A model generated the notes under the pieces. The model was given only the letters and a program-made list of their open reading frames with translations, was not told the DNA's origin and did not search any database. 32,433 bases of DNA, taken from a virus (Duplodnaviria > Caudoviricetes). The stretch lies in the IMG/VR virus record IMGVR_UViG_3300009164_004823, positions 1-32,433 of that record. One strand, written 5' to 3'. Numbering within the stretch: the stretch's first letter is position 1; each line of letters starts with the position of its first letter. The translations under genes were made by a program, and so were the position numbers. Below, in pieces: positions 889 through 31,872 of this stretch.

Positions 889-964
889 CAAAGAAAATTT
901 TTACAGATGAAGAATGGAATGCAATAAAGAACAACGGAACGTTCTGTCCTGCCCCTTTCTTTTC
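883..964 (+). repeat. 82-nt near-identical direct repeat, copy 1 (copy 2 at 2172..2253)
   Basis: aaatgacaaagaaaatttttacagatg...cccctttcttttc matches the second copy with one synonymous C/T difference. Confidence 0.9.
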
Positions 965-2177: not shown

Positions 2178-2253
2178 CAAAGAAAATTTTTACAGATGAA
2201 GAATGGAATGCAATAAAGAACAACGGAACGTTTTGTCCTGCCCCTTTCTTTTC
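2172..2253 (+). repeat. 82-nt near-identical direct repeat, copy 2
   Basis: Same sequence as 883..964 with one mismatch. Confidence 0.9.
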
Positions 2254-4763: not shown

Positions 4764-4766
4764 GTT

Positions 4767-5714
4767 ATGGGAATGTTAAACAAGTTTTATGAAATAGACT
4801 TCACAGATGGCACACGTATTGAAACGTTGCGCTACCAAATTGTCGACACCCCAGTTGCAGAGCTATGGTTAGATCGTGTGCGCTGGCATCTTGCATTGCC
4901 TGATTGCCACATTTTTGCTAATCAATGGATAGTTACATTGCCCACATTGGAAAAAGTACAGTCAATGTGGCGCAACATGAAAAAGCTGGTTGATGAAGCA
5001 AACTCTGGACAATACATACAAGTTTCCTATATTGATATGGAGCCTGAGTTTAATCCAAAAGCAGACAACAGAAAAATTTTAAATTATCTACATTTACAAT
5101 TCCATCAATTTGAAGAAGAGCTACGCGGAAAAATTGTTGGATATGATCCACTACAAGAATTAAATGTTGAAATACATCGCATAGAGGCAATGTTGGACAG
5201 GGCACTTGATAACTCTGGACTGATTGCTGGTGATGTCAGTTGTGGATTTTTCTTACATGGTTCCGCTCACACAGCACCAATTAGCGGAACACATACTGTA
5301 CCAATTGACGATATGAGTTTGTATCAGTACTGGCAACACAATACTACCTTTGGCGATCTTTTATTAGGTTATCACACCGTTGGCAAGAACTTAGAACATT
5401 GCTGGCGCGACGGAGATATTGATTTAGTTAAAACAGGTATGTTACGACCTCAACAAACAGTAAGCAACGAAGTAGTATTAGCATTCCGTGGCAACGACGT
5501 GCCCAGTGGAGCCCGGGAGTGGAAAAAAGAAGTTGACGCAATTCAGCAATGGGTCAAGGATAACGACCTAGCGCAGTATGTCGATATGTCACAGCCCTAT
5601 CATAATATATCAGGTAGACCGTTGCTTGGTAGAATAGTAGGCGACTATACCATAGAAGAAATTAATGAAATTTTTGAACTTGGCCGAATTAAAACCGTTA
5701 GACTAATAGAGTGA
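4767..5714 (+). CDS. Hypothetical protein (His-rich motifs LNYLHLQFH, EIHRIE, GYHTVGK)
   Basis: 315-aa ORF tightly coupled within the radical SAM operon; no family recognised. Confidence 0.75.
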   Translation: MGMLNKFYEIDFTDGTRIETLRYQIVDTPVAELWLDRVRWHLALPDCHIFANQWIVTLPTLEKVQSMWRNMKKLVDEANSGQYIQVSYIDMEPEFNPKADNRKILNYLHLQFHQFEEELRGKIVGYDPLQELNVEIHRIEAMLDRALDNSGLIAGDVSCGFFLHGSAHTAPISGTHTVPIDDMSLYQYWQHNTTFGDLLLGYHTVGKNLEHCWRDGDIDLVKTGMLRPQQTVSNEVVLAFRGNDVPSGAREWKKEVDAIQQWVKDNDLAQYVDMSQPYHNISGRPLLGRIVGDYTIEEINEIFELGRIKTVRLIE

Positions 5715-5716
5715 AT

Positions 5717-7108
5717 ATGAAAACAATAGAATTTGGATTATACAATCAGATCAACAATAGATCAGAATCATACCAAGAACACATACGAGGTATTACTAAC
5801 TTTGCAGTCAATTTACAGATTGTTAGTTATAATTGGACAAACAACAAAAATGCCAGTCTTATTGTAGACACAAACGTAGACAGCATACTTGCTAAGGCAG
5901 ACCTAAATAAACCTGATTACGTTTATGTAGTGGCTTATGGTTATCGTAGTTATAACGAACGTCTTGTTACAATGATGATTGATCATGCTGAAGCAAATGG
6001 CTATAGTGTATTGGCGCACATATTAGAAGACAATCCCAAGGACCCATCAAATGGATTTTATTCATTACATAATCAATGTTTTTTAATTAATATGGAACAT
6101 TGGCGTGCCGCAGGAAGTCCAAAATTTGGCGGATATGAAACTACAACAGCAGAACTGCCCTTGGTAGTAAGAAGCAGTAGCAACTTTCACGATGACTACA
6201 CACCATACGAAATCAAGCCAACAGGACAAACACGACAGTACACAGGGCAGTTGCGCGATGGTTGGAATTTAGCTAGCACTATGATTAAACATGGATATTC
6301 AATTGGTAATTTCCCAGACGAGATTCGTAACTTAAAACAACACATATATCCCGAAGTAGGTAACGAGTTAGAACAAGTGTTAGCCGGTGATACATCTGTG
6401 CAAGTAGTTGAGTATAATCAAAAGCGTTACATTGACCTAATGGACTTTAGTGGATTCCAAGGTAGTGTGTATGTGTTTAACACTGATTCAATGCGCCCGG
6501 ACAATATCCCTTATAATAAGAATACCAAATTAGACAGTATCTATTGCGTAGCCGCAGGCTTTAAGCCAATTCAATTAATGAATCAATGTGACTGGGACAG
6601 TAATACACAAATGGTTTATTTTGATTACAGTGATTCCGCATTGGCATTTAAACAATGGCTATTCGAAACATGGGATGGGCGGGATTATCTTGCCGCAGTA
6701 AACAAATACCAAACAGAAATTGATACTGGCTTTAGACCAATTTGGTTTGTAGGCCGTGATTATACACCCGAGTGGAACAAGACTATGGAATACTTTGGTG
6801 GCGAACAAGCTTGGTTAGAACTGTGGGACAAGTATCGTAAATTGCCACATAAGTTTTTAAAAACAAACTTGTACAGTAACTACCAAGACTTGGTTAATGA
6901 TATGAAACAGCATCCGGGAAACAACTTAATTTGGTTTAGCAATAGTTTCTACACTGAAGCAAGTTTAAGACATTTCCGTCCAAGCGAATTAAAAGATTTG
7001 TACGAAAAATTCATTAATGATTTAAAAGCAAATAATAATAGTTTACAAATATGTGGTACTACAGATACAGGAAGTAGTGCTTGGCAACACGTAGGACAAA
7101 TAAAATGA
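5717..7108 (+). CDS. Hypothetical two-domain protein; C-terminal half possibly a Rossmann/SAM-binding-like fold
   Basis: Long ORF (GTG at 5711 is an alternative start). CVAAGFK followed by VYFDYS resembles methyltransferase motif I/II spacing (weak). Confidence 0.7.
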   Translation: MKTIEFGLYNQINNRSESYQEHIRGITNFAVNLQIVSYNWTNNKNASLIVDTNVDSILAKADLNKPDYVYVVAYGYRSYNERLVTMMIDHAEANGYSVLAHILEDNPKDPSNGFYSLHNQCFLINMEHWRAAGSPKFGGYETTTAELPLVVRSSSNFHDDYTPYEIKPTGQTRQYTGQLRDGWNLASTMIKHGYSIGNFPDEIRNLKQHIYPEVGNELEQVLAGDTSVQVVEYNQKRYIDLMDFSGFQGSVYVFNTDSMRPDNIPYNKNTKLDSIYCVAAGFKPIQLMNQCDWDSNTQMVYFDYSDSALAFKQWLFETWDGRDYLAAVNKYQTEIDTGFRPIWFVGRDYTPEWNKTMEYFGGEQAWLELWDKYRKLPHKFLKTNLYSNYQDLVNDMKQHPGNNLIWFSNSFYTEASLRHFRPSELKDLYEKFINDLKANNNSLQICGTTDTGSSAWQHVGQIK

Positions 7109-7848
7109 TTCCACGAGTAATACAAGAGTTCTTTAACGATATTGATAATCCATGGACCATGGATTTTAAAACGCAAGAAATTCCTACATTTGAACACGAA
7201 GGACAATTAGTTGACTGGATTATTAGCCAATCCGGTTGGCCATACTTGCCGCTGATATTGCCCGGTGCGCCATTTGAAACAATGTTAAAAGAAGCATTTG
7301 GCTTGGAAGACTTGTTTGTAATGCATCGTACTACTCCAGGCGAAAATCCCGAGTATGCAAACCTTGGCTGGAAGAGCATTTGCTTACACGGCGAAGCATG
7401 GGACAAGACAGGACACTGGGAAGCATACTCTGATAACGCAGGTAAAACACAAGCAGACATTGTGTACAAGTGGTGCGATGAAATTACAGAACGTTGTCCA
7501 GAAACCACACGTTACTTTCGTGATGTATTTCCTAATCACAATTATCAACGATTGCGTTACATGTGGCTAGACCCACAAGGTTACATACAGCCACATCAAG
7601 ACAGACAAGAACATTTTCTTGGACCTATCAACGTAGCACTAAACAATCCCAAAGGATGTGAGTTTAAAATGGATGGTAAGGGATATGTTCCTTTTAAAGA
7701 AACAGGCAATGCTTGCTTGGTTGACATTGGCAACCATCACTCCGTTTGGAACAACAGTGATACTCCACGAATACACATTATTTCGCATGGTGGTAGCAGA
7801 GGCGATTTCAACCGCATAGTTGTTGACAGCCTCAAGGCATTGCTGTAA
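7105..7848 (+). CDS. Fe(II)/2OG oxygenase, aspartyl/asparaginyl beta-hydroxylase-like
   Basis: IQPHQD (HxD), then HSVWN and PRIHII (distal His and the 2OG-binding Arg); ATGA overlap. Confidence 0.85.
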   Translation: MIPRVIQEFFNDIDNPWTMDFKTQEIPTFEHEGQLVDWIISQSGWPYLPLILPGAPFETMLKEAFGLEDLFVMHRTTPGENPEYANLGWKSICLHGEAWDKTGHWEAYSDNAGKTQADIVYKWCDEITERCPETTRYFRDVFPNHNYQRLRYMWLDPQGYIQPHQDRQEHFLGPINVALNNPKGCEFKMDGKGYVPFKETGNACLVDIGNHHSVWNNSDTPRIHIISHGGSRGDFNRIVVDSLKALL

Positions 7849-7861
7849 TACCTGTATATTA

Positions 7862-7881
7862 ATAAGTATTGTTTTAAAGGA
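7862..7881 (+). repeat. 20-bp direct repeat, copy 1: TAAGTA box plus Shine-Dalgarno
   Basis: ataagtattgttttaaagga, identical at 9464..9483. Confidence 0.9.
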
Positions 7882-7889
7882 GATATCCA

Positions 7890-8003
7890 ATGTTTAAAAA
7901 AATACTAGACTTTATTCTTGGACCATATCGTAGATACCAAGACAAGCGTCGATTAAAAAAGCGCATTGCTGAGCTACGCAAGCGAGATCCATTTATCTAC
8001 TAA
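7890..8003 (+). CDS. 37-aa basic peptide MFKKILDFILGPYRRYQDKRRLKKRIAELRKRDPFIY (not in the ORF track)
   Basis: Strong SD (aaggag) 8 nt upstream. The ORF fills the gap exactly and ends 3 nt before the carbamoyltransferase start. Confidence 0.8.
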   Translation: MFKKILDFILGPYRRYQDKRRLKKRIAELRKRDPFIY

Positions 8004-8006
8004 CAT

Positions 8007-9464
8007 ATGATACTTGGTATTACAGCACAAAATCATGATGCCAGTCTGGCATTAATTGATGGAGATCGGATTGTGTGGGCCGCACATGCAGAACGCTACA
8101 GTAGAGTTAAGAACGATAATCTGCTAAATGCAGACATGTTGGCAGACATGCGGCAGTATGGTGAACCAACCGAACTGGTATGGTTTGAACGGCCCGTACA
8201 AAAAGACCTACGTAGATTGATTTCTGGTCAACGGCCATGGCGGATTGTTCCTGGTGACCAACTACGTGCAGTGGGATTAGATCACTTGCCCGTTAACTAT
8301 GTTGGCCATCATCATAGTCATGCTTCAGCCGGCTATTACACCAGTCCATATGAAGATGCTAGTATCTTAGTCGTAGATGCGATTGGTGAATGGGACACAG
8401 TCAGTATCTGGGAAGCACGTAAAGATAAGATGGTCAATCGTTGGCGTAAGCGTTACCCCAACAGCTTTGGATTATTCTACACAGCAATGACACAATGGCT
8501 TGGCCTAAAGCCCAACGAAGAAGAATATATTCTCATGGGCATGGCCGCTCATGGCACACCTCGGTACGTTGAAGAATTAAGAGAAACATTCTTTAGGAAA
8601 TGGGCACCACCTGATTTTAAACTGCGACATAATTTACATCGTGGTTGTTCTTGGTGGGAGCCATGTGATAGTCCTGCCTCAAAATTTGATATTGCCGCAA
8701 GTGTACAAAAACTTGCAGAAGAATACCTATTAGAAACTGTATTAGTAATCAAAGCAAATACCACAAGTGACAATTTAATTTTCATGGGCGGTGTTGCTCT
8801 CAATTGTGTAGCAAACTCTGTTATTGCAAGAAGCGGCATCTTTAAAAATATTTGGATTATGCCCAACCCCGGCGATTCTGGTAGTGCCATTGGTGCTGTT
8901 GCCGCATACACACAACGCCATTTAAAATGGTCAGGACCTTACTTGGGCACAGATATTAAACAAGATGTAGACATCAAATCACTTGTAGATGACTTAGAAG
9001 CAGGCAAAGTTGTTGCACTGGCAAACGGACGTACAGAGTTTGGCCCAAGAGCTTTAGGCAATAGAAGTTTACTTTGCGACCCTAGAGGTGTAGATGCCAA
9101 GCTGAGAATGAACACTGTCAAGAAGCGCGAACAGTTTAGACCATTTGCGCCAGCAGTATTAGCAGAACATGCCGACACATACTTTGACATGCCGGTCAAG
9201 GACAGTCCTTACATGCAGTTCGTGGCACGTTGCAGGACTCCTGACTTGCTACCAGGTGTTTGCCATGTAGACAATACCAGCAGAGTACAAACAGTAACTG
9301 AACGAGATAATCCTTTGTTTAGAAGTATTCTAGAAGAATGGAACGCTCGCACAGGTTGCCCCATCTTGATGAATACAAGTTTGAATATCAAAGGTGAACC
9401 CCTGGTCAACACTTGGGCAGATGCACTAAGATTTCAAAGCCTACATAATATACCCGTTTATTGA
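8007..9464 (+). CDS. Carbamoyltransferase, NodU/CmcH/TobZ family
   Basis: HDAS, ERYSRVKND, HHHSHA, DAIGE, MGMAAHG, GGVALNC, EFGPRALGNRS, FRPFAP, HVDNTSRVQTV, NTSLN..GEP. Confidence 0.95.
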   Translation: MILGITAQNHDASLALIDGDRIVWAAHAERYSRVKNDNLLNADMLADMRQYGEPTELVWFERPVQKDLRRLISGQRPWRIVPGDQLRAVGLDHLPVNYVGHHHSHASAGYYTSPYEDASILVVDAIGEWDTVSIWEARKDKMVNRWRKRYPNSFGLFYTAMTQWLGLKPNEEEYILMGMAAHGTPRYVEELRETFFRKWAPPDFKLRHNLHRGCSWWEPCDSPASKFDIAASVQKLAEEYLLETVLVIKANTTSDNLIFMGGVALNCVANSVIARSGIFKNIWIMPNPGDSGSAIGAVAAYTQRHLKWSGPYLGTDIKQDVDIKSLVDDLEAGKVVALANGRTEFGPRALGNRSLLCDPRGVDAKLRMNTVKKREQFRPFAPAVLAEHADTYFDMPVKDSPYMQFVARCRTPDLLPGVCHVDNTSRVQTVTERDNPLFRSILEEWNARTGCPILMNTSLNIKGEPLVNTWADALRFQSLHNIPVY

Positions 9465-16257: not shown

Positions 16258-16530
16258 ATGAGCAGAGACAATCAACGCCCTAAAATTAGGGGCACAAGTG
16301 TATTGGTCAAAGATGACCAAGTTGAAAAAGCACTTAGAAAATTTAAAAACAAGATACAAGATAGTGGCAAAATGGACGAAGTTCGCGATCGCGGAGAATA
16401 TGTCAAACCAACTACTGAACGTAGAGTTGCGGCAAATAAAGCAAGACGTCGTCATTTAAAACAAGTAGAAACAGATGAACTAAACGGAAAACGTGTGCCA
16501 CGCGATGGCATAAAACGCCGGATGTATTGA
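16258..16530 (+). CDS. rpsU: Ribosomal protein bS21 (phage-encoded)
   Basis: VEKALRKFKNK..EVRDRGEYVKPTTERR matches the bS21 pattern; basic protein. Confidence 0.85.
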   Translation: MSRDNQRPKIRGTSVLVKDDQVEKALRKFKNKIQDSGKMDEVRDRGEYVKPTTERRVAANKARRRHLKQVETDELNGKRVPRDGIKRRMY

Positions 16531-16533
16531 TAC

Positions 16534-16562
16534 TTGACTTCTTGCTGAGAAATAAATATAAT
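16534..16562 (+). promoter_or_regulatory. Sigma70-type promoter with overlapping TAAATA box for hsp20
   Basis: TTGACT-17-TATAAT; TAAATA at 16553..16558. Confidence 0.75.
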
Positions 16563-16659
16563 AGTGATATACTAGTGCCATGAGGGCTAGTGATTCACTT
16601 GATAATGCCCATGAAGGGGTTATCAAACAAACTCGCTTTACAAAGGAGATTAAATTATG
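16563..16659 (+). promoter_or_regulatory. ROSE-like RNA thermometer in the hsp20 5' UTR
   Basis: Two hairpins, then CTCGCTT able to pair with the SD AAGGAG leaving a bulged G (ROSE U(U/C)GCU signature). Confidence 0.65.
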
Positions 16660-17079
16660 TCAAAGCAATTACCTTATTCACAATTTGGTATCGGATTCGA
16701 TCGCATGTTTGAAGAGTTGGACCGCTTGATCAGCAATGGTACAACAACAAACGGCGGATACCCACCATTCAACGTAGAGAGACTAGAAGACAACAAACAT
16801 CGTATCACGATGGCTGTGGCTGGTTTCAACGAATCTGAAATTGATATTACACACCAGGATAATACCTTGGTTGTGAAAGGTGAAAAGTCCAATGATGAAC
16901 CTACAGCAAACTACATCTATCGTGGTATTGCAAAACGCAACTTCCGTAGGGAGTTTGTGCTTGCAGATCATGTAGAAGTACGAACTGCAAGCCTTAGGGA
17001 TGGCATGTTGGTAATCGATTTCGAAACTCTTGTACCTGAAGAATACAAGCCTAAGAAGATTCCTCTAATCAAGGAATAA
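16657..17079 (+). CDS. Small heat shock protein, Hsp20 (IbpA-like)
   Basis: IGFDRMF, YPPFNVE, MAVAGF, YRGIAKRNFRREF, LRDGML, C-terminal PKKIPL. Confidence 0.95.
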   Translation: MSKQLPYSQFGIGFDRMFEELDRLISNGTTTNGGYPPFNVERLEDNKHRITMAVAGFNESEIDITHQDNTLVVKGEKSNDEPTANYIYRGIAKRNFRREFVLADHVEVRTASLRDGMLVIDFETLVPEEYKPKKIPLIKE

Positions 17080-17093
17080 TCAACTTTTCACAT

Positions 17094-17120
17094 GGGTGGG
17101 AATTAAAAATCCCACCCTTT
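17094..17120 (+). terminator. Stem-loop terminator after hsp20
   Basis: gggtggga...tcccaccc 8-bp stem followed by ttt. Confidence 0.6.
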
Positions 17121-17156
17121 AGATAAATATTAGACAAGAACACGGGTATATAACAA

Positions 17157-17468
17157 ATGTCAGAAACAGCAATTCAAACAGTTAAGAAAACAGATAATAC
17201 AACTGGCATAAAAGAACCAGAAAAATTCCGAGTGGTAATTTTAAACGACAATGCCACACCAATGGAATTTGTCATTGAGTTGCTTAAAGTAATTTTTCAC
17301 CACAATCAAGAAGCCGCACTACAAATTATGATGCAGGTACATCAAAATGGTAAAGGTACTGCTGGAATTTACACATACGAAGTGGCTGAACAAAAAGCCA
17401 TGGAGTCAACACAAATTGCTCGTACCAATGGTCACCCGCTTGGAGTAAGTGTTGAGCTTGCCGGCTGA
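17157..17468 (+). CDS. clpS: ATP-dependent Clp protease adaptor ClpS
   Basis: VVILNDNATPMEFV, IMMQVHQNGKG, YEVAEQK, HPL. Confidence 0.93.
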   Translation: MSETAIQTVKKTDNTTGIKEPEKFRVVILNDNATPMEFVIELLKVIFHHNQEAALQIMMQVHQNGKGTAGIYTYEVAEQKAMESTQIARTNGHPLGVSVELAG

Positions 17469-20578: not shown

Positions 20579-21325
20579 ATGACAAACTTATTCAATCAAA
20601 ATAATCCAAACGCAGTTGTTGGTGACGGAGTTAGTGGAAGCCGACAAGGCATGGGCATTATGCGTCCAGAATTAGTGGCCGCAGAACTGGCATTGTTGCA
20701 ACTGGGGGACTTTGAGCCGTTAGATTGGCACCTGGATGCACACAGCATTGACAAGGTAATTACAGAAAAATACAGCACAGATTGGGTAGATTACCTTCCA
20801 AGAACAGACCGTCCAAATAATCGTCGGTCAATGACACTTACAACAATTCCTGGTTGGGACCATCGCAGTCCTCCAAGTATTCCAGAAGCAACAAACAAAT
20901 TGGGACGAGTGCCATTTGAGCATGAGTTTTGTGTTCCTACACAATTGTACCAAGACTGTGACCAAGCACATCTCGGACTTGATAGTTTGAAAGATTTCTT
21001 AGATGAGTGGAATCCATTGGGCAGAACATTTATTGTCAACTCGGGCATTGGCGGTTATTTTGTGCCACACAGAGACCATCCAGGCCTGCCAAGGCCATGC
21101 TTTCGTCTTGTTGCATTCTTAAAGAACTGCGGCCCGCTGGAATACGATTGGTGGATGGATGATAAAAAAGTAAACATTGAACTAGGCCGAGTGTATTATG
21201 TAAACACTCGAAAAACACACAGAACAATTTCATGGGCTGACAATAGTTGGCACTTAATTCTTAATGTACCGTTTACACCAGCAAATGTAGACAAGGTACT
21301 AAAACACTTACAACATAGACACTAA
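20579..21325 (+). CDS. Fe(II)/2OG oxygenase-like protein
   Basis: GGYFVPHRD; GRVYYVNTRKTH..HLILNV. Confidence 0.8.
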   Translation: MTNLFNQNNPNAVVGDGVSGSRQGMGIMRPELVAAELALLQLGDFEPLDWHLDAHSIDKVITEKYSTDWVDYLPRTDRPNNRRSMTLTTIPGWDHRSPPSIPEATNKLGRVPFEHEFCVPTQLYQDCDQAHLGLDSLKDFLDEWNPLGRTFIVNSGIGGYFVPHRDHPGLPRPCFRLVAFLKNCGPLEYDWWMDDKKVNIELGRVYYVNTRKTHRTISWADNSWHLILNVPFTPANVDKVLKHLQHRH

Positions 21326-21326
21326 C

Positions 21327-21974
21327 ATGAGAATCACAGTAGGCAAAGACAATTTTATCAAACAGGTAGATATTAAACTACCTGAAGGCAAGCAACGAAT
21401 TGGAGTAATGTTAAGCGGTGGCGCAGATTCTGCGGCGCTGTTATATCTACTATGCTTAGAGCGTAGGATGGATAAGAGCTCACAAGAGATAGTTCCGTTT
21501 ACTGTTGCTCGTCCTGATGGAGCATGGGACTATGTTAAACCCATTGTTGAATGGGTTAGAAACAAGCTTGAACTTACAATCGAACAACTGCCAGACCCCA
21601 TCAAGGTTGGTGACCCAACGGTGCATCATAGTCAACAAGGCCGCACAGGCGAATATGAAGCTAGGTCTAAACACAGTATTGAACATATCTTTTATGGAAG
21701 CCAAGCACACCCTGATCGTGTGCTAATCGAGTTGCCTGGAGAATACCCAAGTCGACCTGCCAGTGTAGAATTGCCAGGCACCACTTGTCCATTTGCCTTA
21801 GTAGATAAACGCCATACACTAAGTTTGTATGACATATTTGATGTATGGCCTTTGATTGAGCTTACACATAGTTGCACAGCACTAACCGAAGGGCGTTGTG
21901 GAGAATGTTATAACTGCAAGGAACGTGAGTGGGCACTAAGTCAGTTAGAGTTTACTGACCCGGGCGTGAAGTAA
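21327..21974 (+). CDS. PP-loop adenine nucleotide alpha-hydrolase, QueC-like
   Basis: MLSGGADS PP-loop; THSC..CGECYNCKER zinc site. Confidence 0.8.
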   Translation: MRITVGKDNFIKQVDIKLPEGKQRIGVMLSGGADSAALLYLLCLERRMDKSSQEIVPFTVARPDGAWDYVKPIVEWVRNKLELTIEQLPDPIKVGDPTVHHSQQGRTGEYEARSKHSIEHIFYGSQAHPDRVLIELPGEYPSRPASVELPGTTCPFALVDKRHTLSLYDIFDVWPLIELTHSCTALTEGRCGECYNCKEREWALSQLEFTDPGVK

Positions 21975-22620
21975 AAATACTTAAACCTAGTTTGCGTTTA
22001 ATGCCGTTGCGCGGGAACGCACTACTGACATGTAAACGATTGCGAGGGAATGTCATTGGTACTCCTGGAATCCATTGCCAGTGTTTATCTACTGTAAGTC
22101 CTGCAAAGTTTCTAATGTCCAAATGAGGACAATGGTCCAGTAGTATACCATCCATGGTCTCCATATCATCTAAGTTTCCAACATCTTTATAATCTGTGAT
22201 GACCTGATTATATTCGTTGGGCTCTACAGTTTCACCACGCAAGAAGAATGCCGCATCACCTGTCCATGTTTGATTCAGGACTAGAAATCTATTGCGTTCC
22301 AGTCTGACAGGAACATCGTCTCGAAATTCCTGACGTAGCGGAAACACAAATGTCTGTAACACCTTGCCGGGACCTTCTTTGCCTGTGTCTGCATGTACAC
22401 GATATCCTGTTTCAGTCTCAAAGAAATTGCCGCCAGCAACTTCCCATGTACCTGCTCCTAGCACACCATCAATGATGGGTCTGACTATTTCTAATGCTGG
22501 CTCTAGGTCAAGAGCAAATTTACGTTGAGGTAGAATTTTTATTTGACTATTGTTTTCAAAACAAGAAATAAGTGACAGACGTTGTTCGTCTGTCAGAGGA
22601 TCAAGTACACTGGGGTTCAT
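21952..22620 (-). CDS. Probable Fe(II)/2OG oxygenase-like protein
   Basis: RVHAD, FPRNRLHVS, RKLGLSIF. Start placed at ATG 22620 because the upstream extension overlaps promoter elements. Confidence 0.65.
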   Translation of the reverse strand: MNPSVLDPLTDEQRLSLISCFENNSQIKILPQRKFALDLEPALEIVRPIIDGVLGAGTWEVAGGNFFETETGYRVHADTGKEGPGKVLQTFVFPLRQEFRDDVPVRLERNRFLVLNQTWTGDAAFFLRGETVEPNEYNQVITDYKDVGNLDDMETMDGILLDHCPHLDIRNFAGLTVDKHWQWIPGVPMTFPRNRLHVSSAFPRNGIKRKLGLSIFTSRPGQ

Positions 22621-22634
22621 AGTGAGATATTTAG

Positions 22635-22652
22635 TGTTGTAAAAATGCAACA
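22635..22652. promoter_or_regulatory. Palindromic operator-like site TGTTG-N8-CAACA, copy 1
   Basis: tgttgtaaaaatgcaaca, 7 nt upstream of a -35 box. Confidence 0.7.
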
Positions 22653-22659
22653 GCGTATC

Positions 22660-22688
22660 TTGACAGGTGAGCCAGTTTGTGTTATACT
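22660..22688 (+). promoter_or_regulatory. Sigma70-type promoter
   Basis: TTGACA-17-TATACT. Confidence 0.85.
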
Positions 22689-22708
22689 GTTTAATTAAAG
22701 GAGAAAGT

Positions 22709-22993
22709 ATGCAAGCTAAAAACTTTATAAGCAAATATACAAGCGCCAATAATCGTAAAGCATATGGGAGTTTTTATAATATAAAAGCTACGGAAAAATG
22801 GGTGGAGTATATGCTAGACATTACAGATATGAACCGAGTATTAATGTCTTTACCGTTTAACGATAAAATGCGTATGCTAGATGCCCTAGAGGCGGCAGAG
22901 CGCAAGCGAGATTATATGTACAGACACCCAAATTTTAACTATAAACAAGCTACCCGGTGGTACGAGATGGCAAAAGATTTGCCTAAAAAGTAA
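22709..22993 (+). CDS. Hypothetical protein (94 aa)
   Basis: SD aaggag before ATG 22709; lies downstream of the promoter. Confidence 0.75.
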   Translation: MQAKNFISKYTSANNRKAYGSFYNIKATEKWVEYMLDITDMNRVLMSLPFNDKMRMLDALEAAERKRDYMYRHPNFNYKQATRWYEMAKDLPKK

Positions 22994-22998
22994 GTAGC

Positions 22999-23020
22999 GT
23001 TGTTGTAAAAATACAACAAC
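22999..23020. promoter_or_regulatory. Palindromic operator-like site, copy 2
   Basis: gttgttgta-aaaa-tacaacaac, a perfect 9-bp inverted repeat. Confidence 0.75.
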
Positions 23021-23027
23021 AAAATGG

Positions 23028-23056
23028 TTGACAAGTGGCCCTAAAAGTACTATAAT
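23028..23056 (+). promoter_or_regulatory. Perfect consensus sigma70 promoter
   Basis: TTGACA-17-TATAAT. Confidence 0.9.
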
Positions 23057-23077
23057 AGATACATAGCAAGAAATAAA

Positions 23078-23260
23078 AGGGTTACCAGATCCGTTAGGCG
23101 GACCGTAAGAGAGGAGCACCAAGGCGTTTGGCGCAATCTTACAACGCATGAAGACTGAGGACTAGCAATAGATCCAAATGGTTGACGGAAGTATCTGGCA
23201 GTAATGACCGTGGTGACTGGGCTTCGCAAACCCAGCAGAATGAGATCCACATGGTTCCCT
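23078..23260 (+). ncRNA. Putative structured RNA of unknown class
   Basis: GC-richer non-coding stretch after the promoter with nested helices: aggg/ccct, ccagat/atctgg, ccgtta/tgacgg, gtaaga/tcttac, ccaa/ttgg, ctggg/cccag, gtgg/ccac. Confidence 0.6.
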
Positions 23261-23285
23261 CCTATTATAAATGAAAGGAATAAAA

Positions 23286-23675
23286 ATGACTTACGAAAAA
23301 ACATTGAACATGACAGTTGGATTGAAAGACATGATTGGCAAAGTCTTTACCAGTGTCACTGGTGAAGTAGGCTCACGTGAAATTGTCTTTGCAACCGACA
23401 AAGAAACTTTTACATTTATGCACTTCCAAGATTGTTGCGAATCTGTAGAAGTAAACGACATCGTTGGCGACTTGCAAGACTTGGTAGGCACTCCTATCTT
23501 GGTAGCAGAAGAAGCAGTTGGTGGCGAAGTGGATGGCTTCGAAGGCAATGAGTCATACACTTGGACCTTTTACAAATTTGCAACCTTCAAAGGTTGGGTC
23601 GACATTCGCTGGTTAGGTGAGTCAAACGGCTACTACTCAGAGGGTGTTAGTTTGGAATATGAAAAGTTAGCATAG
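23286..23675 (+). CDS. Hypothetical phage protein (HFQDCCESV motif)
   Basis: SD gaaagga; motifs QDCCESV, TWTFYK and RWLGESNGYYSE. Confidence 0.8.
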   Translation: MTYEKTLNMTVGLKDMIGKVFTSVTGEVGSREIVFATDKETFTFMHFQDCCESVEVNDIVGDLQDLVGTPILVAEEAVGGEVDGFEGNESYTWTFYKFATFKGWVDIRWLGESNGYYSEGVSLEYEKLA

Positions 23676-23684
23676 GAGGTCATT

Positions 23685-23879
23685 ATGACTGTTACTGTGG
23701 CAAGAATGAAAGATAGGTTAGTCGAAGTCGTTCGTGTTGCTGACACAGTTGCGTTCTCTACAGAGCGTGGTTGGGTAATGGTTTGCATGGACTTTGAAAA
23801 GCCTGAACGTAAGAAAGAACAATTCAAGTGGGTGCCCGCCAGTACTCACTTTGATTGGGTTAGAACCTTTGCCTTCTGA
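23685..23879 (+). CDS. Hypothetical protein (64 aa)
   Basis: Strong SD aggaggt. Confidence 0.75.
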   Translation: MTVTVARMKDRLVEVVRVADTVAFSTERGWVMVCMDFEKPERKKEQFKWVPASTHFDWVRTFAF

Positions 23880-23886
23880 GGACACC

Positions 23887-24585
23887 ATGGACCAAGCACA
23901 AAAAAAGCGTTTTCTCAAAGAACAGAAATTACCTATTGCGGATGCATGGGCCTTGGTGGCCTTTGCTGACCGCATCAACGAAGGAAAGTATATCAAGTTT
24001 CCTGAGATGGATCAAGATACTGGCAATGTTAAACTGCATCCCAATCGCGAGTTGATCAAGACACAAGTTGCACTGAGCTTTCCTAATGTTACTGACGCCG
24101 ACAGAGAACTGGGTGCTAAGATGGCAGAGCATTTTCAAGGGCTTGCATTTAGTATGCTGGGTGGTAAAACGAATGACTTTGATCAAAAGATTATGAATTT
24201 TATCACGCAAGAAGATATTGACGCTAACATGGGCCTGGCATACATGGCATGTCTTGGTGCTCGCTACCATAAAGAAGTTGTAAAAGAACAGCGGCAAGAA
24301 ACTCTAAATAAAGTTATTGCAACCAGTATTCACCAAGGTGCTGTGGGCCAACACCTACGCCTTGATGTTACTGTAATCAATAAATTTGCAGGCAAGGTAT
24401 TTGCCGGTAGTGTAGTTCGTGCTACAGACGGAACTAACTTGTACTTTTGGACCAGTAGCAAGACTGTTGACATGTGGCCCGATACTCCTGAACAGTTTCC
24501 CATAGTTGGAGTTGTTAAGGCACATGGAAAAGACAGAGATGGTGCTCAAGAAACCAGACTGACCAGAGTCAAGATTGCAATTTAA
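23887..24585 (+). CDS. Hypothetical protein, possible C-terminal OB-fold
   Basis: SD gagga. The beta-rich C-terminus (GVVKAH..ETRLTRVK) suggests an OB-like domain (weak). Confidence 0.7.
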   Translation: MDQAQKKRFLKEQKLPIADAWALVAFADRINEGKYIKFPEMDQDTGNVKLHPNRELIKTQVALSFPNVTDADRELGAKMAEHFQGLAFSMLGGKTNDFDQKIMNFITQEDIDANMGLAYMACLGARYHKEVVKEQRQETLNKVIATSIHQGAVGQHLRLDVTVINKFAGKVFAGSVVRATDGTNLYFWTSSKTVDMWPDTPEQFPIVGVVKAHGKDRDGAQETRLTRVKIAI

Positions 24586-24589
24586 AATA

Positions 24590-24611
24590 CCCGCTCGGGC
24601 GGGCTTTTTTT
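24590..24611 (+). terminator. Intrinsic terminator
   Basis: cccgc-tcgg-gcggg followed by c and T7. Confidence 0.8.
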
Positions 24612-24649
24612 GACTAAACACAGCAGGTGACAAATGTATAATTATATAC

Positions 24650-25201
24650 ATGTATATTCCATCTCATATTATTGCCAGCGTAAAAAATGCAATACCGGTT
24701 TATAAAGATTGGCCCAAGCCTGGCATCTCATACAAAAATACAGTAGAACTGGCCCAACAACCAATGGCATTTGCACATGCCATAGACTGGTTTTCTTTAG
24801 TGGCCAGGCAAGCTACTGCAAAAGAAATATTTGCTCCAGATGCTCGTGGTTTTATATTTGGTTCAGCATTGTCAATCAAGTCACACTTGCCAATGACGGT
24901 TGTGCGTAAACCCGGAAAGCTACCCGGAGATGTGTGGAGTCAAAGTTATGAGTTGGAGTATGGCACAGACACACTGGAGATACAGCAAAATATACAAGCA
25001 GGTGACAGACCTGTTCTCATTGTTGATGATGTGTTGGCCACTGGCGGAACAGCACAAGCAATTTGCAAACTATTACACAATAACTTGGGTATTGCATATT
25101 CATCAATGACAGTTGCTGTCCTGATTAATCTTTCCTTCTTAGGTGGTAAAACACTTTTAACCGAGCAAGGTGTTGCTGTACATGGGCTACTAAATGAATG
25201 A
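24650..25201 (+). CDS. apt: Adenine phosphoribosyltransferase
   Basis: DWPKPGI, DARGF, RKPGKLPG, YELEYG, VLIVDDVLATGGT (PRPP motif). Confidence 0.93.
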   Translation: MYIPSHIIASVKNAIPVYKDWPKPGISYKNTVELAQQPMAFAHAIDWFSLVARQATAKEIFAPDARGFIFGSALSIKSHLPMTVVRKPGKLPGDVWSQSYELEYGTDTLEIQQNIQAGDRPVLIVDDVLATGGTAQAICKLLHNNLGIAYSSMTVAVLINLSFLGGKTLLTEQGVAVHGLLNE

Positions 25202-25751
25202 TCTAATTGTGTTTGCTTTAGAAGATGAAGCACCAGGTCTTTTTAAAGAATACTCTAATGTGCATTGCATTGGAGTAGGCAAGGTCAATGCCGCAATAAA
25301 TCTAATGCGGCTATGTCACATATACCATCCCAGGCGCATTATCAACATGGGTACAGCAGGCGGCATTAGATTGGGGCATGGCGTACATCGTATCAATACT
25401 GTATGGCAACATGACGTAAACTTGATGGCACTTGGCATGCAACCGGGTATTCACTTCAATGATCCTGTAAGTATGATTATCATGCCCGGTATAGGTAAGA
25501 CTTGTGCGTCAGGTGATATCTTTATTACTGAACCCAACAAGCTTCGAGTAGAATGTGATGTAGTCGACATGGAGGCATACAGCGTGGCCAAGGTAGCAAA
25601 TACACTTGGACTTGATATCGAAATATGGAAGTACATCAGTGACCCTGCAGATGTGGGCGCCGGTACAACTTGGAAAGAACAAGTGTCATCTGGAGAACCA
25701 CTTTACAGACAAGTGTTAGAAGAATTAAAAATTAAATTGGAACCTAAATGA
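25194..25751 (+). CDS. MTA/SAH nucleosidase-like protein (PNP_UDP family)
   Basis: ALEDE, GVGKVNAA, INMGTAGG, SGDIF, VDMEA, KYISD.AD. Confidence 0.85.
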   Translation: MNDLIVFALEDEAPGLFKEYSNVHCIGVGKVNAAINLMRLCHIYHPRRIINMGTAGGIRLGHGVHRINTVWQHDVNLMALGMQPGIHFNDPVSMIIMPGIGKTCASGDIFITEPNKLRVECDVVDMEAYSVAKVANTLGLDIEIWKYISDPADVGAGTTWKEQVSSGEPLYRQVLEELKIKLEPK

Positions 25752-26332
25752 AAATAGCAAGCGGCTATGCCGAAATGTTTGAGTGGGATGATGGTAACCC
25801 AAACAACGAGGATCGAACCGGACTAACAGTTGCACTTTATAGCGGTGATAAAATTAGAGTTGCCAGCGCCAATGATGTGCCCATTGGAGTTGTTGGCGGG
25901 GACAATACCAGTGTAGCGGCTATTAGCAATGCTAGTCCACAGGAATGGCACGGAAAACATTTAAGAGATGTTGCTGGTAGATTACTTTGGGAAGGCCAAG
26001 TAATGGTTGAATGGATTGACAAAGGATTTCGTCACTGGTATGAAACCGATCGTTTACCAGAAGGTATTACTATACCGGAGAATGCAACATATTACTACGA
26101 ACTAAATGGACATAAACTACAAAGAGAAATATTATCAGAAGAATTTAAACAAAAAAATGGGATGGTACCGCAGTACTTGCCACGTTGGGAAAGACAAGAG
26201 TGGGGTATAGTAGTGTTATTGGGTAGAGCAGTTGTCAGAGAAGGTAGCGTATGCAATCCATTGTGGAAAAGATTAAAACTTCAGGACGGAGAATTATACG
26301 GGCAATCTGTGGCCGAGTGGTTAATAAGATAA
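25748..26332 (+). CDS. Stand-alone Peptidase_G2-like intramolecular-chaperone domain
   Basis: YAEMFEW.DGNP..EDR.G..V and YLPRWERQEW..V.LLG pattern, normally C-terminal on tailspikes. Confidence 0.7.
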   Translation: MKIASGYAEMFEWDDGNPNNEDRTGLTVALYSGDKIRVASANDVPIGVVGGDNTSVAAISNASPQEWHGKHLRDVAGRLLWEGQVMVEWIDKGFRHWYETDRLPEGITIPENATYYYELNGHKLQREILSEEFKQKNGMVPQYLPRWERQEWGIVVLLGRAVVREGSVCNPLWKRLKLQDGELYGQSVAEWLIR

Positions 26333-26343
26333 TAGAGCATAAA

Positions 26344-26583
26344 ATGACAAACCTAAACGACCAAGCCACTATCATATTAATGGGCTCATTAAAAGAGTTG
26401 CTATCTAATCGTAAATACGTCTACGTAAGTAACACAAATTATTCGTACTCCCGTTTGGAAGAGCCAGGTAAAGAGATGATCATTAACTTGGTACAATCTA
26501 TTTTGCCATTACTAGCAGAAGCTCGCGATTTACAAATAAAAGAAGAAGCAGAACGACTCATGATTGACAAACTGAGTAAATAA
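26344..26583 (+). CDS. Hypothetical protein (79 aa)
   Basis: The ORF fills the gap; ATG 26344 chosen to avoid overlap. Confidence 0.65.
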   Translation: MTNLNDQATIILMGSLKELLSNRKYVYVSNTNYSYSRLEEPGKEMIINLVQSILPLLAEARDLQIKEEAERLMIDKLSK

Positions 26584-26601
26584 ACTATTGTAAATACAAT
26601 T

Positions 26602-27462
26602 ATGCAAACAAAAAACATCTTTCCAGACTGGGGCACAGAGATCACAGACATGAGTGATATCTTTGAGCAAGATACTCGTGAATTGAGAAAGCTACTGTAT
26701 GATCGTAAAATGATAGTATTACATGCTCCTGAATGGGACAAGCTAACTTATTGGAAGTTTTGTGCGCTATGGGGACAACCGTGGACAGGAAAGAACTATC
26801 ATGATAGTACAGAAAAATGGGAAGTTGTACTTGACCCAGAATCCCCAGGCGAACCAAAATTTATCACAGCAATCAGTAACAAAATTAGTGCTCGTTTGGG
26901 TGACAAAGAAATGCCTTGGCATGCTGACATTGCCAATCGCGTAGATGGCGGCATTCAGTTTCCGCATCGTATTATCTACATGAAGACTGTGCCTAATCCA
27001 AAAGCAGGTTTAACTGTTTGGTTAGATATGGAAAAAGCTTATCCTGAAGTACATTCAAGACTTAGAGCACGTTGGGAAGCACGTACTATTGTTCAGCAAA
27101 ATTGGCACCATCTTGGCAATGACATTATTGAATGGCCTTCAATGAAACAGCAACCAATTACTGGCCGCTGGAGCCCGAGATGTAACTTTCACGGAGTCAC
27201 TGATGCATGGATCATTGATACCAAGTTAAATGGTAAAAGCATGGGAACTGGTATTGTTGAAGAACTCATGGAAGCAATGGCTGCTGTTCCAGAATGTGTA
27301 TACACGCACACATGGACTCCAAATGACATGGTCCTATATGACAACTGGCCATTTGTACATAGCAGAACATTCTTAGATTTAAAAGCTGAAGACGAACGCT
27401 TAATGTGGCGTTGTAACATTGAACACGATGAAAGCTTAAAAGAAACCCTGTATGGAAAGTAA
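26602..27462 (+). CDS. TauD/TfdA family Fe(II)/2OG dioxygenase
   Basis: WHAD, TVWLDM, HTWTPNDMVLYDNWPFVHSR, RLMWR. Confidence 0.9.
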   Translation: MQTKNIFPDWGTEITDMSDIFEQDTRELRKLLYDRKMIVLHAPEWDKLTYWKFCALWGQPWTGKNYHDSTEKWEVVLDPESPGEPKFITAISNKISARLGDKEMPWHADIANRVDGGIQFPHRIIYMKTVPNPKAGLTVWLDMEKAYPEVHSRLRARWEARTIVQQNWHHLGNDIIEWPSMKQQPITGRWSPRCNFHGVTDAWIIDTKLNGKSMGTGIVEELMEAMAAVPECVYTHTWTPNDMVLYDNWPFVHSRTFLDLKAEDERLMWRCNIEHDESLKETLYGK

Positions 27463-28159
27463 CTACATATACTTTAACTCTTGTAAATTACTAGATCCTT
27501 TAACCGACAATTGGACCACAATTCGTGATGAGTTTATTAAAAACTCAATGCGAGAATCGTATAAGGCACGTGTAACAAATGAAGAAGAAAAAGGCATCAA
27601 AGCAAACTATATCACTGACCTAACAGGTGAAGAATTGTATGTTGGTGATTTCAAAGCCATGCCTGTTATGCTAAGAGAAGATTTTGTTGACCATCACGAA
27701 GCAAAGTCAATGGACTGGAAGAATTGGAAGCAACCAGGTGGTGAGAAAATATCATTCAATGATGCAAGGCTACATCGTATGCCATTTATACAACAGTGGA
27801 TGTATAGGAACATTGAGGTACTTGGTGCAGTCACTTTTAATATTTCATTACCTGGAAGCAAATTGAATCACCACTGGGGCTTGGTAAATGAATATATTCG
27901 TTTTCACTTGGTGTTAAAGCAAGCAACAGGTTGTGTATTTGATATTGAAAACGAAAGACATGAATGGGTAGATGGTGAGTTATTTGGTTTTGATGACTGC
28001 AATGTATTTCACGGTACCAAGCATACTGGCACAGAGCCTAGAATAATCATGTTGATTGATATTCTAAAAAGTGCAGTCCAACCTTATGCTAAAACTTGGC
28101 CTGTAAGAGAAAATATACCTCGGAACAAGAGAACTATCCCAACTATACTGGATTGGTAA
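27452..28159 (+). CDS. Aspartyl/asparaginyl beta-hydroxylase family protein
   Basis: PGSKLNHHWG, IRFHLVL, W.DGELFGFDD..FH..PRIIMLID. Confidence 0.88.
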   Translation: MESNYIYFNSCKLLDPLTDNWTTIRDEFIKNSMRESYKARVTNEEEKGIKANYITDLTGEELYVGDFKAMPVMLREDFVDHHEAKSMDWKNWKQPGGEKISFNDARLHRMPFIQQWMYRNIEVLGAVTFNISLPGSKLNHHWGLVNEYIRFHLVLKQATGCVFDIENERHEWVDGELFGFDDCNVFHGTKHTGTEPRIIMLIDILKSAVQPYAKTWPVRENIPRNKRTIPTILDW

Positions 28160-28160
28160 T

Positions 28161-28757
28161 ATGCTATTTGAATTAAATCATCGTGTGGTAGACGCTATTG
28201 ATACCAGTCTAGTAGACCCTATCATTGAAGCTTGTAAAAAAGCCAACTGGGGCAATGGTACATATGATAGATTTGAAAAAGTTCTGTCTGATGGCAAATT
28301 GGTAGAATATCCGTTTCCTATCAGCAAGCCTAATAAAACTTACACACCAGAGCAAACAGAAATTCTACGAGCAAGCAAGCCCCTGCTAGATTGGATCTTG
28401 ACCTTGCCTAGGTTTGCAGGATACAAATGGATTCGTGGTGAAGTTGCTACGCTACTTCCAGGAGTAACACTAGGTTGGCACAAAGATCCACAGTGGTTCC
28501 ATGATAATTGTGTGCGTTTACATGTACCAATTTATACCAACGACCAGTGTGTACAACTTTGGAAAACCGAAGAGTACCATATGGAAATGGGTTATCTATA
28601 CGAATTGAATAATCGTGTGACTCATAGTGCAACCAACAGAGGCACAGAGTTTAGAACCCACTTAATCTTAGATATCATGCCAGAGACTAAGTGGCAAGAG
28701 TCAAGGCAATCAGGAATTAACCCAATTGGCCTTGTTGATGCTCCTGGCGAGTATTAA
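28161..28757 (+). CDS. Fe(II)/2OG oxygenase (AspH-like)
   Basis: WHKD, RLHVPI.TN, YELNNRVTHSATN..RTHLILD. Confidence 0.88.
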   Translation: MLFELNHRVVDAIDTSLVDPIIEACKKANWGNGTYDRFEKVLSDGKLVEYPFPISKPNKTYTPEQTEILRASKPLLDWILTLPRFAGYKWIRGEVATLLPGVTLGWHKDPQWFHDNCVRLHVPIYTNDQCVQLWKTEEYHMEMGYLYELNNRVTHSATNRGTEFRTHLILDIMPETKWQESRQSGINPIGLVDAPGEY

Positions 28758-30085: not shown

Positions 30086-30376
30086 ATGAAAAAACTTTTA
30101 ATCGCAATCGTAGCAACTATGGCCCTGACGGGTTGTGCAAGTAGAACAGGTACTGCTGTACTTGCTGGTACCACTGGCCTTATCATTGGCAATGCAATGG
30201 CACAGCCACAGCACAGAGTGGTAACACACGAGCAAGTGATCATTGTAAACAGCACCTGTGCTCAATATCAACTTCACAGTGACAGAGCCGCTTGTGAACG
30301 TGGCGCACGTCAACGTTGGCAAGAAGAACAGCGCAAGAGAGAACAAGAAGCATATCGTCAAGGCTATGGACGATAA
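30086..30376 (+). CDS. Putative lipoprotein
   Basis: MKK plus hydrophobic stretch plus LTGC lipobox; glycine-zipper-like segment; TATAAATA (30062..30069) and SD aaggag upstream. Confidence 0.8.
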   Translation: MKKLLIAIVATMALTGCASRTGTAVLAGTTGLIIGNAMAQPQHRVVTHEQVIIVNSTCAQYQLHSDRAACERGARQRWQEEQRKREQEAYRQGYGR

Positions 30377-31872
30377 TGAGTTATAATGTAATACTGATTG
30401 GTGGTATCACATTTGATCGAATAGGCAGAGCAATTGGTCCTTTTAGATTAAGAACAGCATTTGAAAATGCAGGATATTCACTAAAGGCCATTGACTACGC
30501 CTGGGCACTTGATCAGGATCAAATGATTGAATTGTTGTCAACACTTATTACACCAGAAACAAAAATATTAGGTATCAGTGCTGCCTGGTATGATTTTCCA
30601 GCCAATAAGTGGGCACAGGATCTTACTTTTTTCAGGAGATTTAGGAGTCTCTTTCCGGACATAACAATTGTTGTTGGAGGCACCAGTACCACTCCACCGT
30701 CATTGTTATATAACTATTCTGACTGGTTTGTTAGTGGGTTCAGTGATATTGCATTTGTCAAGCTTGTTGATTATCTCTATGGAAAAACGTCAGATTTGAT
30801 TTATACAACAGATGCACACGGCATTCCTGGTCCGGGTCCTGGCAAAATTAAAATAGTATCAGCTGACAGAGATTATCAAATAATAAATGTGGATGAAATT
30901 GAAACAGTCTTTAAGGAAGAGGATGGATTCTTATCTCATCAACCCTTACCTATTGAAATAAGCAGGGGCTGTATTTTTAAATGTGCATTTTGCACACATC
31001 CTTTCCTGGGTAAAAAGTCATACGATTATATACGAACAGCAGAAAGCATCGGTAGCGAACTTAAAAGAAATTATGAGTTGTTTGGTACCTACCGATACAT
31101 GATATCTGATGATACATTTAACGACAGCTACGAAAAACTAGATATAGTTAAACGAGCAATTGAAATTGCTAAGTTATCAAAATTTGAATTTGTGAGTTAT
31201 ATTAGGCCTGAACTAATTATCACCAAACCCAATATGCTTTCTATGCTACTTGACTTGGGTATCAAGGGTGGGTTTATTGGCCTCGAGTCTATGCGAAAAG
31301 AATCTAGACAGGTAGTTGGAAAAGGCATTGCAGTTGACCGGGTACTTGAAATTGCACAAACTCTCAATGAGAGTGGTGTTAAAATGCATGCCAGTTTAAT
31401 TGCTGGTCTACCAGGTGACTCTGAAGAAGAAATTCATAAATGGAATGATTACCTAATTGAGAACAAGAGTCGTCTATTTAGAAGTTGGAATTTCAATGCA
31501 CTTGGAATGCACCGAACAGCAAAGGGTGATGTGCCATACAGCTTGTTTGAAAAAAAACCAAAATCTTATGGGTATACCACTAAAGAATTGGCGCACAACA
31601 TACGGTCATTGGACTGGGTACATACATCTGGAATGACTGCGGCCAAGGCACAAGAAATTTCTAACAAATGTAATGCTTCTGCTAGACAACATATAAAAAT
31701 TGGCGGCTGGGAAGTTGCAGGTGCTTGGTTCCATGACATACCAGAATCTATTGTGGAAAATATGCCATTTAATCAGACCAATCTCAATGAGAAATCCTAT
31801 GAAAACTCAATGGCACGAGCCAGTTATAATTATAATTTGACCACGGGCAAACATTTGAACAATGCACAATGA
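30376..31872 (+). CDS. B12-binding-type radical SAM protein
   Basis: N-terminal ILGISA..IVVGG domain, EISRGCIFKCAFC, DDTFND, IGLES, LIAGLPGD. Confidence 0.9.
   Translation: MSYNVILIGGITFDRIGRAIGPFRLRTAFENAGYSLKAIDYAWALDQDQMIELLSTLITPETKILGISAAWYDFPANKWAQDLTFFRRFRSLFPDITIVVGGTSTTPPSLLYNYSDWFVSGFSDIAFVKLVDYLYGKTSDLIYTTDAHGIPGPGPGKIKIVSADRDYQIINVDEIETVFKEEDGFLSHQPLPIEISRGCIFKCAFCTHPFLGKKSYDYIRTAESIGSELKRNYELFGTYRYMISDDTFNDSYEKLDIVKRAIEIAKLSKFEFVSYIRPELIITKPNMLSMLLDLGIKGGFIGLESMRKESRQVVGKGIAVDRVLEIAQTLNESGVKMHASLIAGLPGDSEEEIHKWNDYLIENKSRLFRSWNFNALGMHRTAKGDVPYSLFEKKPKSYGYTTKELAHNIRSLDWVHTSGMTAAKAQEISNKCNASARQHIKIGGWEVAGAWFHDIPESIVENMPFNQTNLNEKSYENSMARASYNYNLTTGKHLNNAQ

Follow-up and report, generated by a model that had tools for sequence, protein, structure and literature searches.

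GOLLD (RF02032) and ROOL are described as orphan structured phage RNAs that often occur near phage tRNA islands and possess covarying, intermolecular kissing loops (10.1101/2024.12.08.627333). The small stable RNAs rnaC and rnaD (species 1 and 2 RNAs) are annotated inside the tRNA cluster of a T4-type phage. Theta (HDV-like) ribozymes are likewise structured RNAs associated with phage tRNA genes, and one criterion for them is cleavage no more than 5 nt from the 3' end of a tRNA (PMC10879173). In MoMLV and related retroviruses, hairpins with GACG tetraloops promote RNA-RNA linkage and contribute to RNA dimerisation (PMC516450). Using covariation, Fremin et al. (2023; PMC10690425) mined intergenic regions of IMG/VR for viral structured RNA candidates.

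The locus considered here lies in a window of 32,433 nt, i.e., the whole stretch of DNA that was analysed, which stems from a 32-kb virus record (IMGVR_UViG_3300009164_004823) with a completeness estimate of 10%. An earlier note, made from this sequence without database searches, had flagged one intergenic gap as containing a multibranched RNA behind a perfect promoter. Judged from its homologues, this gap is one copy of a conserved structured phage RNA gene of ~180 bases. As claimed in the note, the gap is the longest between plausible listed genes of the window; a minus-strand ORF at 21952-22749 is conserved at 62-65% in relatives, so that its position does not count as a longer gap. The reported GC enrichment was recovered as well, with 51% in 23078-23260 compared to 31% upstream, 20% downstream and 40% in the window. 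The promoter is indeed perfect (TTGACA-17-TATAAT), being the sole 12/12 match among 21 promoter-like sites in 21000-25500. The features of the locus are:

22709..22993, + strand: upstream gene, 94 aa, no known family; different cassettes follow it in relatives
23028..23056, + strand: sigma-70-type promoter, part of a promoter/leader module that related phages also have ahead of genes, tRNAs or other RNAs
23057..23285: structured-RNA gap between the 94-aa gene and the DUF7448 gene
23057..23077, + strand: A-rich 5' leader, which in relatives forms a long closing stem together with the 3' flank
23078..23260, + strand: structured RNA, closed by P1 (23078-81 with 23257-60)
23080..23098, + strand: 5' core strand with invariant GGUU and invariant UAGG
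23082-84/23202-04, 23085-90/23193-98 and 23091-95/23184-88, + strand: P2, P3 and P4
23098..23147, + strand: long arm P5, ending in loop L5, which reads GGCG in this copy (23123-26) and GACG in the majority of homologues
23148..23152, + strand: near-invariant AYGAA strand of the upper three-way junction
23153..23183, + strand: P6, a variable hairpin with a GCAA loop in this copy; its closing apposition is G.U, A.C or G-C
23202..23206, + strand: invariant UAAUG of the lower three-way junction
23206..23256, + strand: 3' arm P7/P8 with loop L8 (23222-30)
23274..23675, + strand: ribosome-binding site and DUF7448 gene, likely start at 23286

All eight pairings named in the earlier note are present, and the eight strands to which it assigned positions were confirmed there. 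The ccgtta/tgacgg helix holds in part: the helix exists, but its sixth pair (A-U) is formed in just 7 of 44 aligned homologues. Beyond these pairings, the fold includes a short invariant putative helix (UUA/UAA), the bases of the two arms and a predicted loop-loop contact. The note had proposed to judge its reading by folding energy together with covariation. The energy of the window copy is no better than that of shuffled sequences (z of -0.17 and -0.27), whereas covariation is strong; consequently, the case rests on homologues. The median folding z of the family is just -1.35 (32 representatives). A conserved small ORF, which the note had named as a competing explanation, does not account for the region, as no reading frame is conserved across members.

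Among relatives, the slot behind the upstream gene is exchangeable and contains the same RNA, a different RNA (locus L004), no insert (locus L010) or other genes. A scan with the promoter-leader module led to a diverged copy of the RNA with compensatory changes. A first shared-motif pattern yielded 22 distinct matches, 16 of which were real by eye, and wider patterns gave at least 119 viral loci, at least 120 metagenome loci and 16 GTDB loci. The P3/P4 pairing had been left out of the search pattern and was found, among the matches listed, in 92 of 97 distinct viral and 86 of 93 distinct metagenome sequences, as well as in 1 of 16 GTDB loci. The bin of this lone GTDB match also has T4-type capsid genes, indicating that the match is probably a phage contig. 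Exact 15-mer scans returned chance matches for the most part. In total, the family comprises at least 189 distinct complete copies from viral and metagenome contigs, condensed into 94 representatives, with lengths of 140-240 nt (170-199 nt in 67/94). The tree of the 94 cores is poorly resolved. Among the matches listed, the closest variant of the window copy is found at locus L455 and differs from it by several compensatory double changes.

The carriers are uncultured T4-like phages of 164-525 kb, and a T4-type gp23 capsid gene was found in five of five long carrier records examined for it. In one record (G048:C1:164773-165768), a short gap splits the capsid gene match in two, which may reflect a frameshift or an assembly error. 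The family model matches 18 of 50 records, seven of the eight near-complete carriers having been chosen for the motif; among near-complete records chosen on other grounds, the RNA is present in one of four and absent from three. Two complete related jumbo phage records lack the RNA. This absence from complete and near-complete relatives marks the RNA as accessory and dispensable. Two records carry two copies each. When the window copy and three further members were compared by blastn with 50,697 annotated phage records, no match was obtained. Run without a positive control, the family model likewise gave none in nine cultured phages, namely T4 and relatives selected for a similar capsid or nuclease. 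A betaproteobacterial permuted tmRNA is located in a phage tRNA array (L338:1729-2148), ~400 nt from a family member, and hints at a betaproteobacterial host group.

Covariation was analysed in a sequence-only alignment of 44 members with 26 named pairs. Pairing was observed in 91.3% of 1120 cells, compared to 73.2% in shuffled and 31-46% in slid controls, and 232 double-sided changes were counted against 81.6 in shuffles, with relatedness being incompletely removed by both types of control. The four pairs with the highest mutual information all belong to helices, and covariation extends over P1, P3, P4, P5, P7 and P8. P2 exhibits no double-sided change; it may not be a helix. The best reading frame is open in 17 of 82 members, and core lengths are spread evenly over all three phases. 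G.U exceeds A.C at pairs by 106 to 8, a count that is biased in part by the placement of P3.

Nearly invariant bases, about 15 in number, are concentrated at two three-way junctions. In the lower junction, GGUU meets UAAUG and the 3' arm above the closing helix P1; the first pair of the 3' arm is G.U or G-C in 92 of 94 representatives and the next two pairs covary. P3 and P4 are set apart by short 3' bulges. The upper junction is formed by UAGG, AYGAA and the apposition closing P6, which is A.C in 51, G.U in 16 and G-C in 10 of 82 members. As the search patterns partly contained these invariants, they were tested separately: a pattern restricted to the 3' part gave 38 distinct matches, all 38 of which have the 5' core, ten differing at one base with the pair kept each time. 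Members obtained with the first pattern or the model retain GGUU and UAAUG, and one has AGGAA instead of AYGAA.

The two arms are of nearly fixed length and end in loops for which a kiss is predicted, as at least three lineages show concerted changes in both. Where the loops were called, the distance from the beginning of the arm is 22-25 nt for L5 in 65 of 78 cases and 20-22 nt for L8 in 66 of 69. The usual loops are GACG (L5) and GACGN (L8); an L5 of GACG or GCCG facing an L8 with GACG, which allows a CG-to-CG fit, is found in 66 of the 88 representatives with both loops called. Complementarity between L5 and L8 spans at least two bases in 82/88 and a single base in 6/88. Variant lineages combine an L5 of UAGC with UAGCU or AGCC, GGCA with AGAUGCG, and GCUG with AGACAGA; each of these L5 variants has three complementary bases with its own partner and one with the standard partner. 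In the weakly resolved tree, different branches carry the three discriminating types. In the 17 members with a variant L5, cognate complementary runs sum to 39 compared to 28.1 for random partners, and the cognate sum was reached in none of 20,000 draws under a null that ignores ancestry. A further combination, GGCG with YUCGC, is that of the window copy, where L8 CGC (23225-27) is complementary to L5 GCG (23124-26) and L5 fits the standard L8 as well. With a caller that assumed a fixed loop size, only the standard cases, 57 of the 94, were recovered, and variants were either miscalled or overlooked. Short members lacking the 3' arm also lack the GNCG loop and the brace.

In retroviral GACG kisses, two C-G pairs are formed. 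The likeness to these hairpins is confined to the motif; in the phage RNA, a tetraloop would face a pentaloop within one small molecule. The covarying GACG-type kiss would represent a natural case of a very short loop-loop contact under selection. Three other uses of these sequences were considered and rejected. A switch in which CCGUUA would pair with one or the other of two GACGG segments does not hold, as P4 becomes CCAC/GUGG while the loop stays GACGG; for a kink-turn at AUGA/UGAC, the bases in question covary within P4; and the GGA of a CsrA-type sponge is, by inspection, not retained in the loops.

The genomic context was examined at the fetched loci of 93 distinct members among the matches listed. 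Same-strand tRNAs occur in 62 of these loci, opposite-strand tRNAs in none, and 31 loci contain no tRNA. A tRNA is located within 150 nt in 54 cases, the nearest upstream tRNA end always being at least 14 nt away, and a promoter-like site is situated directly upstream in 27. Some copies are isolated between two promoters and others are wedged between tRNAs; the window copy itself has no nearby tRNA. A flanking duplex of at least 12 bp was found in 86 of the 93, a count made without a shuffled control. In the window copy, this closing stem is reduced to 8 bp and its 3' partner is mostly lost. The ribosome-binding region of the DUF7448 gene replaces the 3' half of the long stem there, suggesting that this copy is probably read through into the gene; DUF7448 is probably an incidental neighbour reached by this read-through. 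Downstream genes are unrelated among themselves, and 16 of 16 tested had no Pfam match. The promoter modules at 22634-22688 and 22994-23056 are alike, each with a short inverted repeat that precedes the -35 box; they recur several times in related phages, marking exchangeable gene cassettes.

Among RNA-library runs, 21 have words in common with the stretch, the overlap exceeding half in three of these. Contigs cover the RNA in all four RNA-library runs examined, which were picked for holding the stretch and may be DNA-derived; such contigs carry no strand, end or level information and do not bear on the abundance that the earlier note had proposed. As the runs were selected with this stretch, missing contig cover outside ~22600-23640 is no evidence. 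The C variant of AYGAA is present in two of the runs, and one contig spans the RNA into the DUF7448 gene.

None of the Rfam 15 covariance models matched the motif at the gathering cut-off, and only neighbouring tRNA, tmRNA and GOLLD RNAs were detected. ARAGORN also gave no match, in agreement with the statement in the earlier note that the RNA is not a tRNA and that its class is unrecognised. The family resembles GOLLD and ROOL, at most, in its predicted kissing loops and in its siting near tRNA islands, which the window copy does not share; it differs from them in size (140-240 nt compared to several hundred nt) and core, and is not matched by their models. A GOLLD RNA with an internal tRNA is located ~400 nt from a family member (L283:2101-2565) and is a separate element. 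Membership of T4 rnaC and rnaD was rejected for lack of sequence or structure homology: even with filters off, the family model reaches no more than 5 bits on the T4 cluster, and the core motifs are absent from the rnaC/rnaD sequence. In RNase P RNA, CR-I and CR-V form the P4 pseudoknot; these regions occur in 0 of 94 representatives, no Rfam match was obtained and RF00010 was found in 0 of 14 long records. A tmRNA assignment was dismissed, as the RNA shows neither a tRNA-like domain nor a tag frame and the permuted tmRNA at L338 is separate from the member. Instead of the rod with a central bubble typical of 6S RNA (RF00013), the RNA is multibranched, and it has no Rfam match. Retron or DRT ncRNAs were discarded on the grounds that no reverse transcriptase is adjacent and the neighbours tested have no Pfam match. 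The candidates of Fremin et al. in DNA viruses measure 29-151 nt and are shorter than most members; a fragment of the family may be catalogued among them (PMC10690425). A literature search covering freely accessible papers found no description of the RNA. Covariation, genomic context and the lack of an Rfam match thus uphold the earlier assignment as a phage ncRNA of unrecognised class, and comparative sequence analysis gives good support to a real family of orphan phage ncRNAs that is new and for which a loop-loop brace is predicted.

In the reading we favour, with a probability of roughly 55%, the RNA would be a free-standing ncRNA of large T4-like phages that is transcribed early, excised, braced by the kiss and active in trans on a host factor; a decoy or scaffold binding such a factor appears to be the most likely function. 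Transcription would be carried out by the host sigma-70 polymerase, presumably early in infection. Host RNases acting on the flanking stem and on neighbouring tRNAs would then release the RNA from longer transcripts, and a physical, probably intramolecular, loop-loop contact would hold the compact fold. The partner could be a host protein or RNA-protein machine, which the RNA would bind as a decoy or scaffold and which would probably be tied to translation or anti-phage defence. The RNA moves among tRNA arrays and promoter cassettes with no fixed neighbour, its junction core is invariant and it lacks a long conserved single strand; these traits point to a free RNA that binds its partner by shape. 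A host-encoded partner is the simplest guess, given that no reverse transcriptase, bS21 link or phage partner was found: none of 14 long records, which include 10 carriers, contains reverse transcriptase (PF00078); bS21 is encoded in both complete non-carriers and missing from three near-complete carriers; and a comparison of three carriers with two non-carriers, a sample too small to exclude one, left no phage RNA-binding partner among six carrier-linked proteins (a phosphoesterase, a glycosyltransferase, a carboxypeptidase, a nucleotidase and two unknowns). The family adds a compact, well-defined member to the unexplained RNAs kept by large phages among tRNA genes. With ~180 nt, a mapped core and natural compensatory loop swaps, it should be far easier to probe, crystallise and image than GOLLD or ROOL, and the role of orphan RNAs in tRNA islands becomes directly testable through it.

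Several other explanations were weighed, which we rank after the host-factor decoy or scaffold in the order oligomer, small-molecule sponge, ribozyme, antiterminator and cis leader. That the kiss joins separate molecules into dimers or rings, a small analogue of GOLLD/ROOL cages, is a minority possibility, which is also compatible with the favoured reading. Covariation does not distinguish pairing within from pairing between molecules, and precedents exist in the GOLLD/ROOL kissing loops (10.1101/2024.12.08.627333) and in GACG-mediated retroviral dimerisation (PMC516450). However, variant L5 loops complement L8 rather than another L5, the fixed arm lengths of ~21-23 nt each would by rough geometry fit a closed triangle in one molecule, and the RNA is a quarter of the size of GOLLD. 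It is doubtful that the RNA represents a new class of free phage aptamer or ribozyme, in which a brace-held junction pocket would bind or destroy either a tRNA-targeting factor or a signal of host defence or stress; if true, this would constitute an RNA-only counter-defence element. In its pure aptamer form, with the junction pocket sequestering a small molecule, for instance a nucleotide that signals stress or anti-phage defence in the host, we regard the idea as unlikely. Purine and TPP aptamers exhibit the same combination of junction-clustered invariant bases and a distal brace, and the RNA is found behind host-type promoters without an expression platform; yet the neighbours offer no clue to a ligand, no Rfam riboswitch matched the motif at E values up to 5-10, and we know of no natural precedent for a free small-molecule sponge. 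A ribozyme cutting itself or neighbouring tRNA precursors, for which the conserved junction core, the proximity to tRNAs in 54 of the 93 listed matches and the theta ribozymes (PMC10879173) could be invoked, is improbable to the same degree: with its minimum distance of 14 nt, the RNA never comes within 5 nt of an upstream tRNA 3' end, 31 of the 93 loci are devoid of tRNAs, it is much larger than theta ribozymes, the top covarying pairs form nested helices instead of a nested double pseudoknot, and RNase P conserved regions are lacking.

Direct promoter-proximal placement in 27 of the 93 listed members and the common orientation with nearby tRNAs would also suit a put-like cis antitermination element that would remain on the host polymerase and aid read-through of tRNA arrays and early cassettes. 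We consider this quite improbable, as many copies are situated between tRNAs, others lie at once before a new promoter, and a long stem clamps both ends as in an excised product. The cis-regulatory leader, which the earlier note had offered as its second option, fared worse and, as a riboswitch or leader of the DUF7448 gene, retains very little probability. Although the RNA ends 25 nt before the start codon, a weak hairpin can cover the ribosome-binding site and one RNA-library contig bridges into the gene, the closest listed variant, L455, precedes a different gene, DUF7448 occurs without the RNA at L010, and an unrelated RNA fills the slot at L004. The downstream neighbours across the family are tRNAs, promoters and unrelated genes, which largely refutes this role at the family level; a riboswitch or leader class was also rejected for lacking a consistent position 5' of a gene class and an expression platform. 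Folding by chance, a gene for a small protein and an element acting at the DNA level can all practically be dismissed. The folding z of about -0.2 and ORFs of 53-87 aa overlapping the region would fit, but the strong covariation, the rarely open best frame and the spread of lengths over all phases refute this explanation, and the partly biased preference for G.U over A.C also speaks against it.

Further observations concern the surroundings of the family and the window. A second structured RNA (L004:2875-3060) occupies the same promoter slot before DUF7448. Its 3' module was found as five distinct variants in 15 copies among the loci examined, located in tRNA arrays and often just behind a promoter; loci with a module of this type are L199:373, L238:806, L293 and L334. 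In L004, L199, L238 and L293, no Rfam family matched it at the gathering cut-off. In the window, bS21, Hsp20 and ClpS are encoded consecutively at 16258-17468. The window also carries radical-SAM genes, and clusters at 864-9464, 24650-28757 and 30316-31872 combine radical-SAM, carbamoyltransferase, phosphoribosyltransferase, nucleoside phosphorylase, TauD and beta-hydroxylase genes, a content that suggests modification pathways for nucleotides or protein. A third structured unit of ~100 nt adjoins short family members on either side (downstream in L356, upstream in L316). Finally, the AU-rich closing stem of the family, often with one internal mismatch, was also observed around several unrelated inserts in these tRNA arrays (L199:640-1000, L356:1330-1480 and L316 upstream of 1200) and resembles a shared processing carrier.
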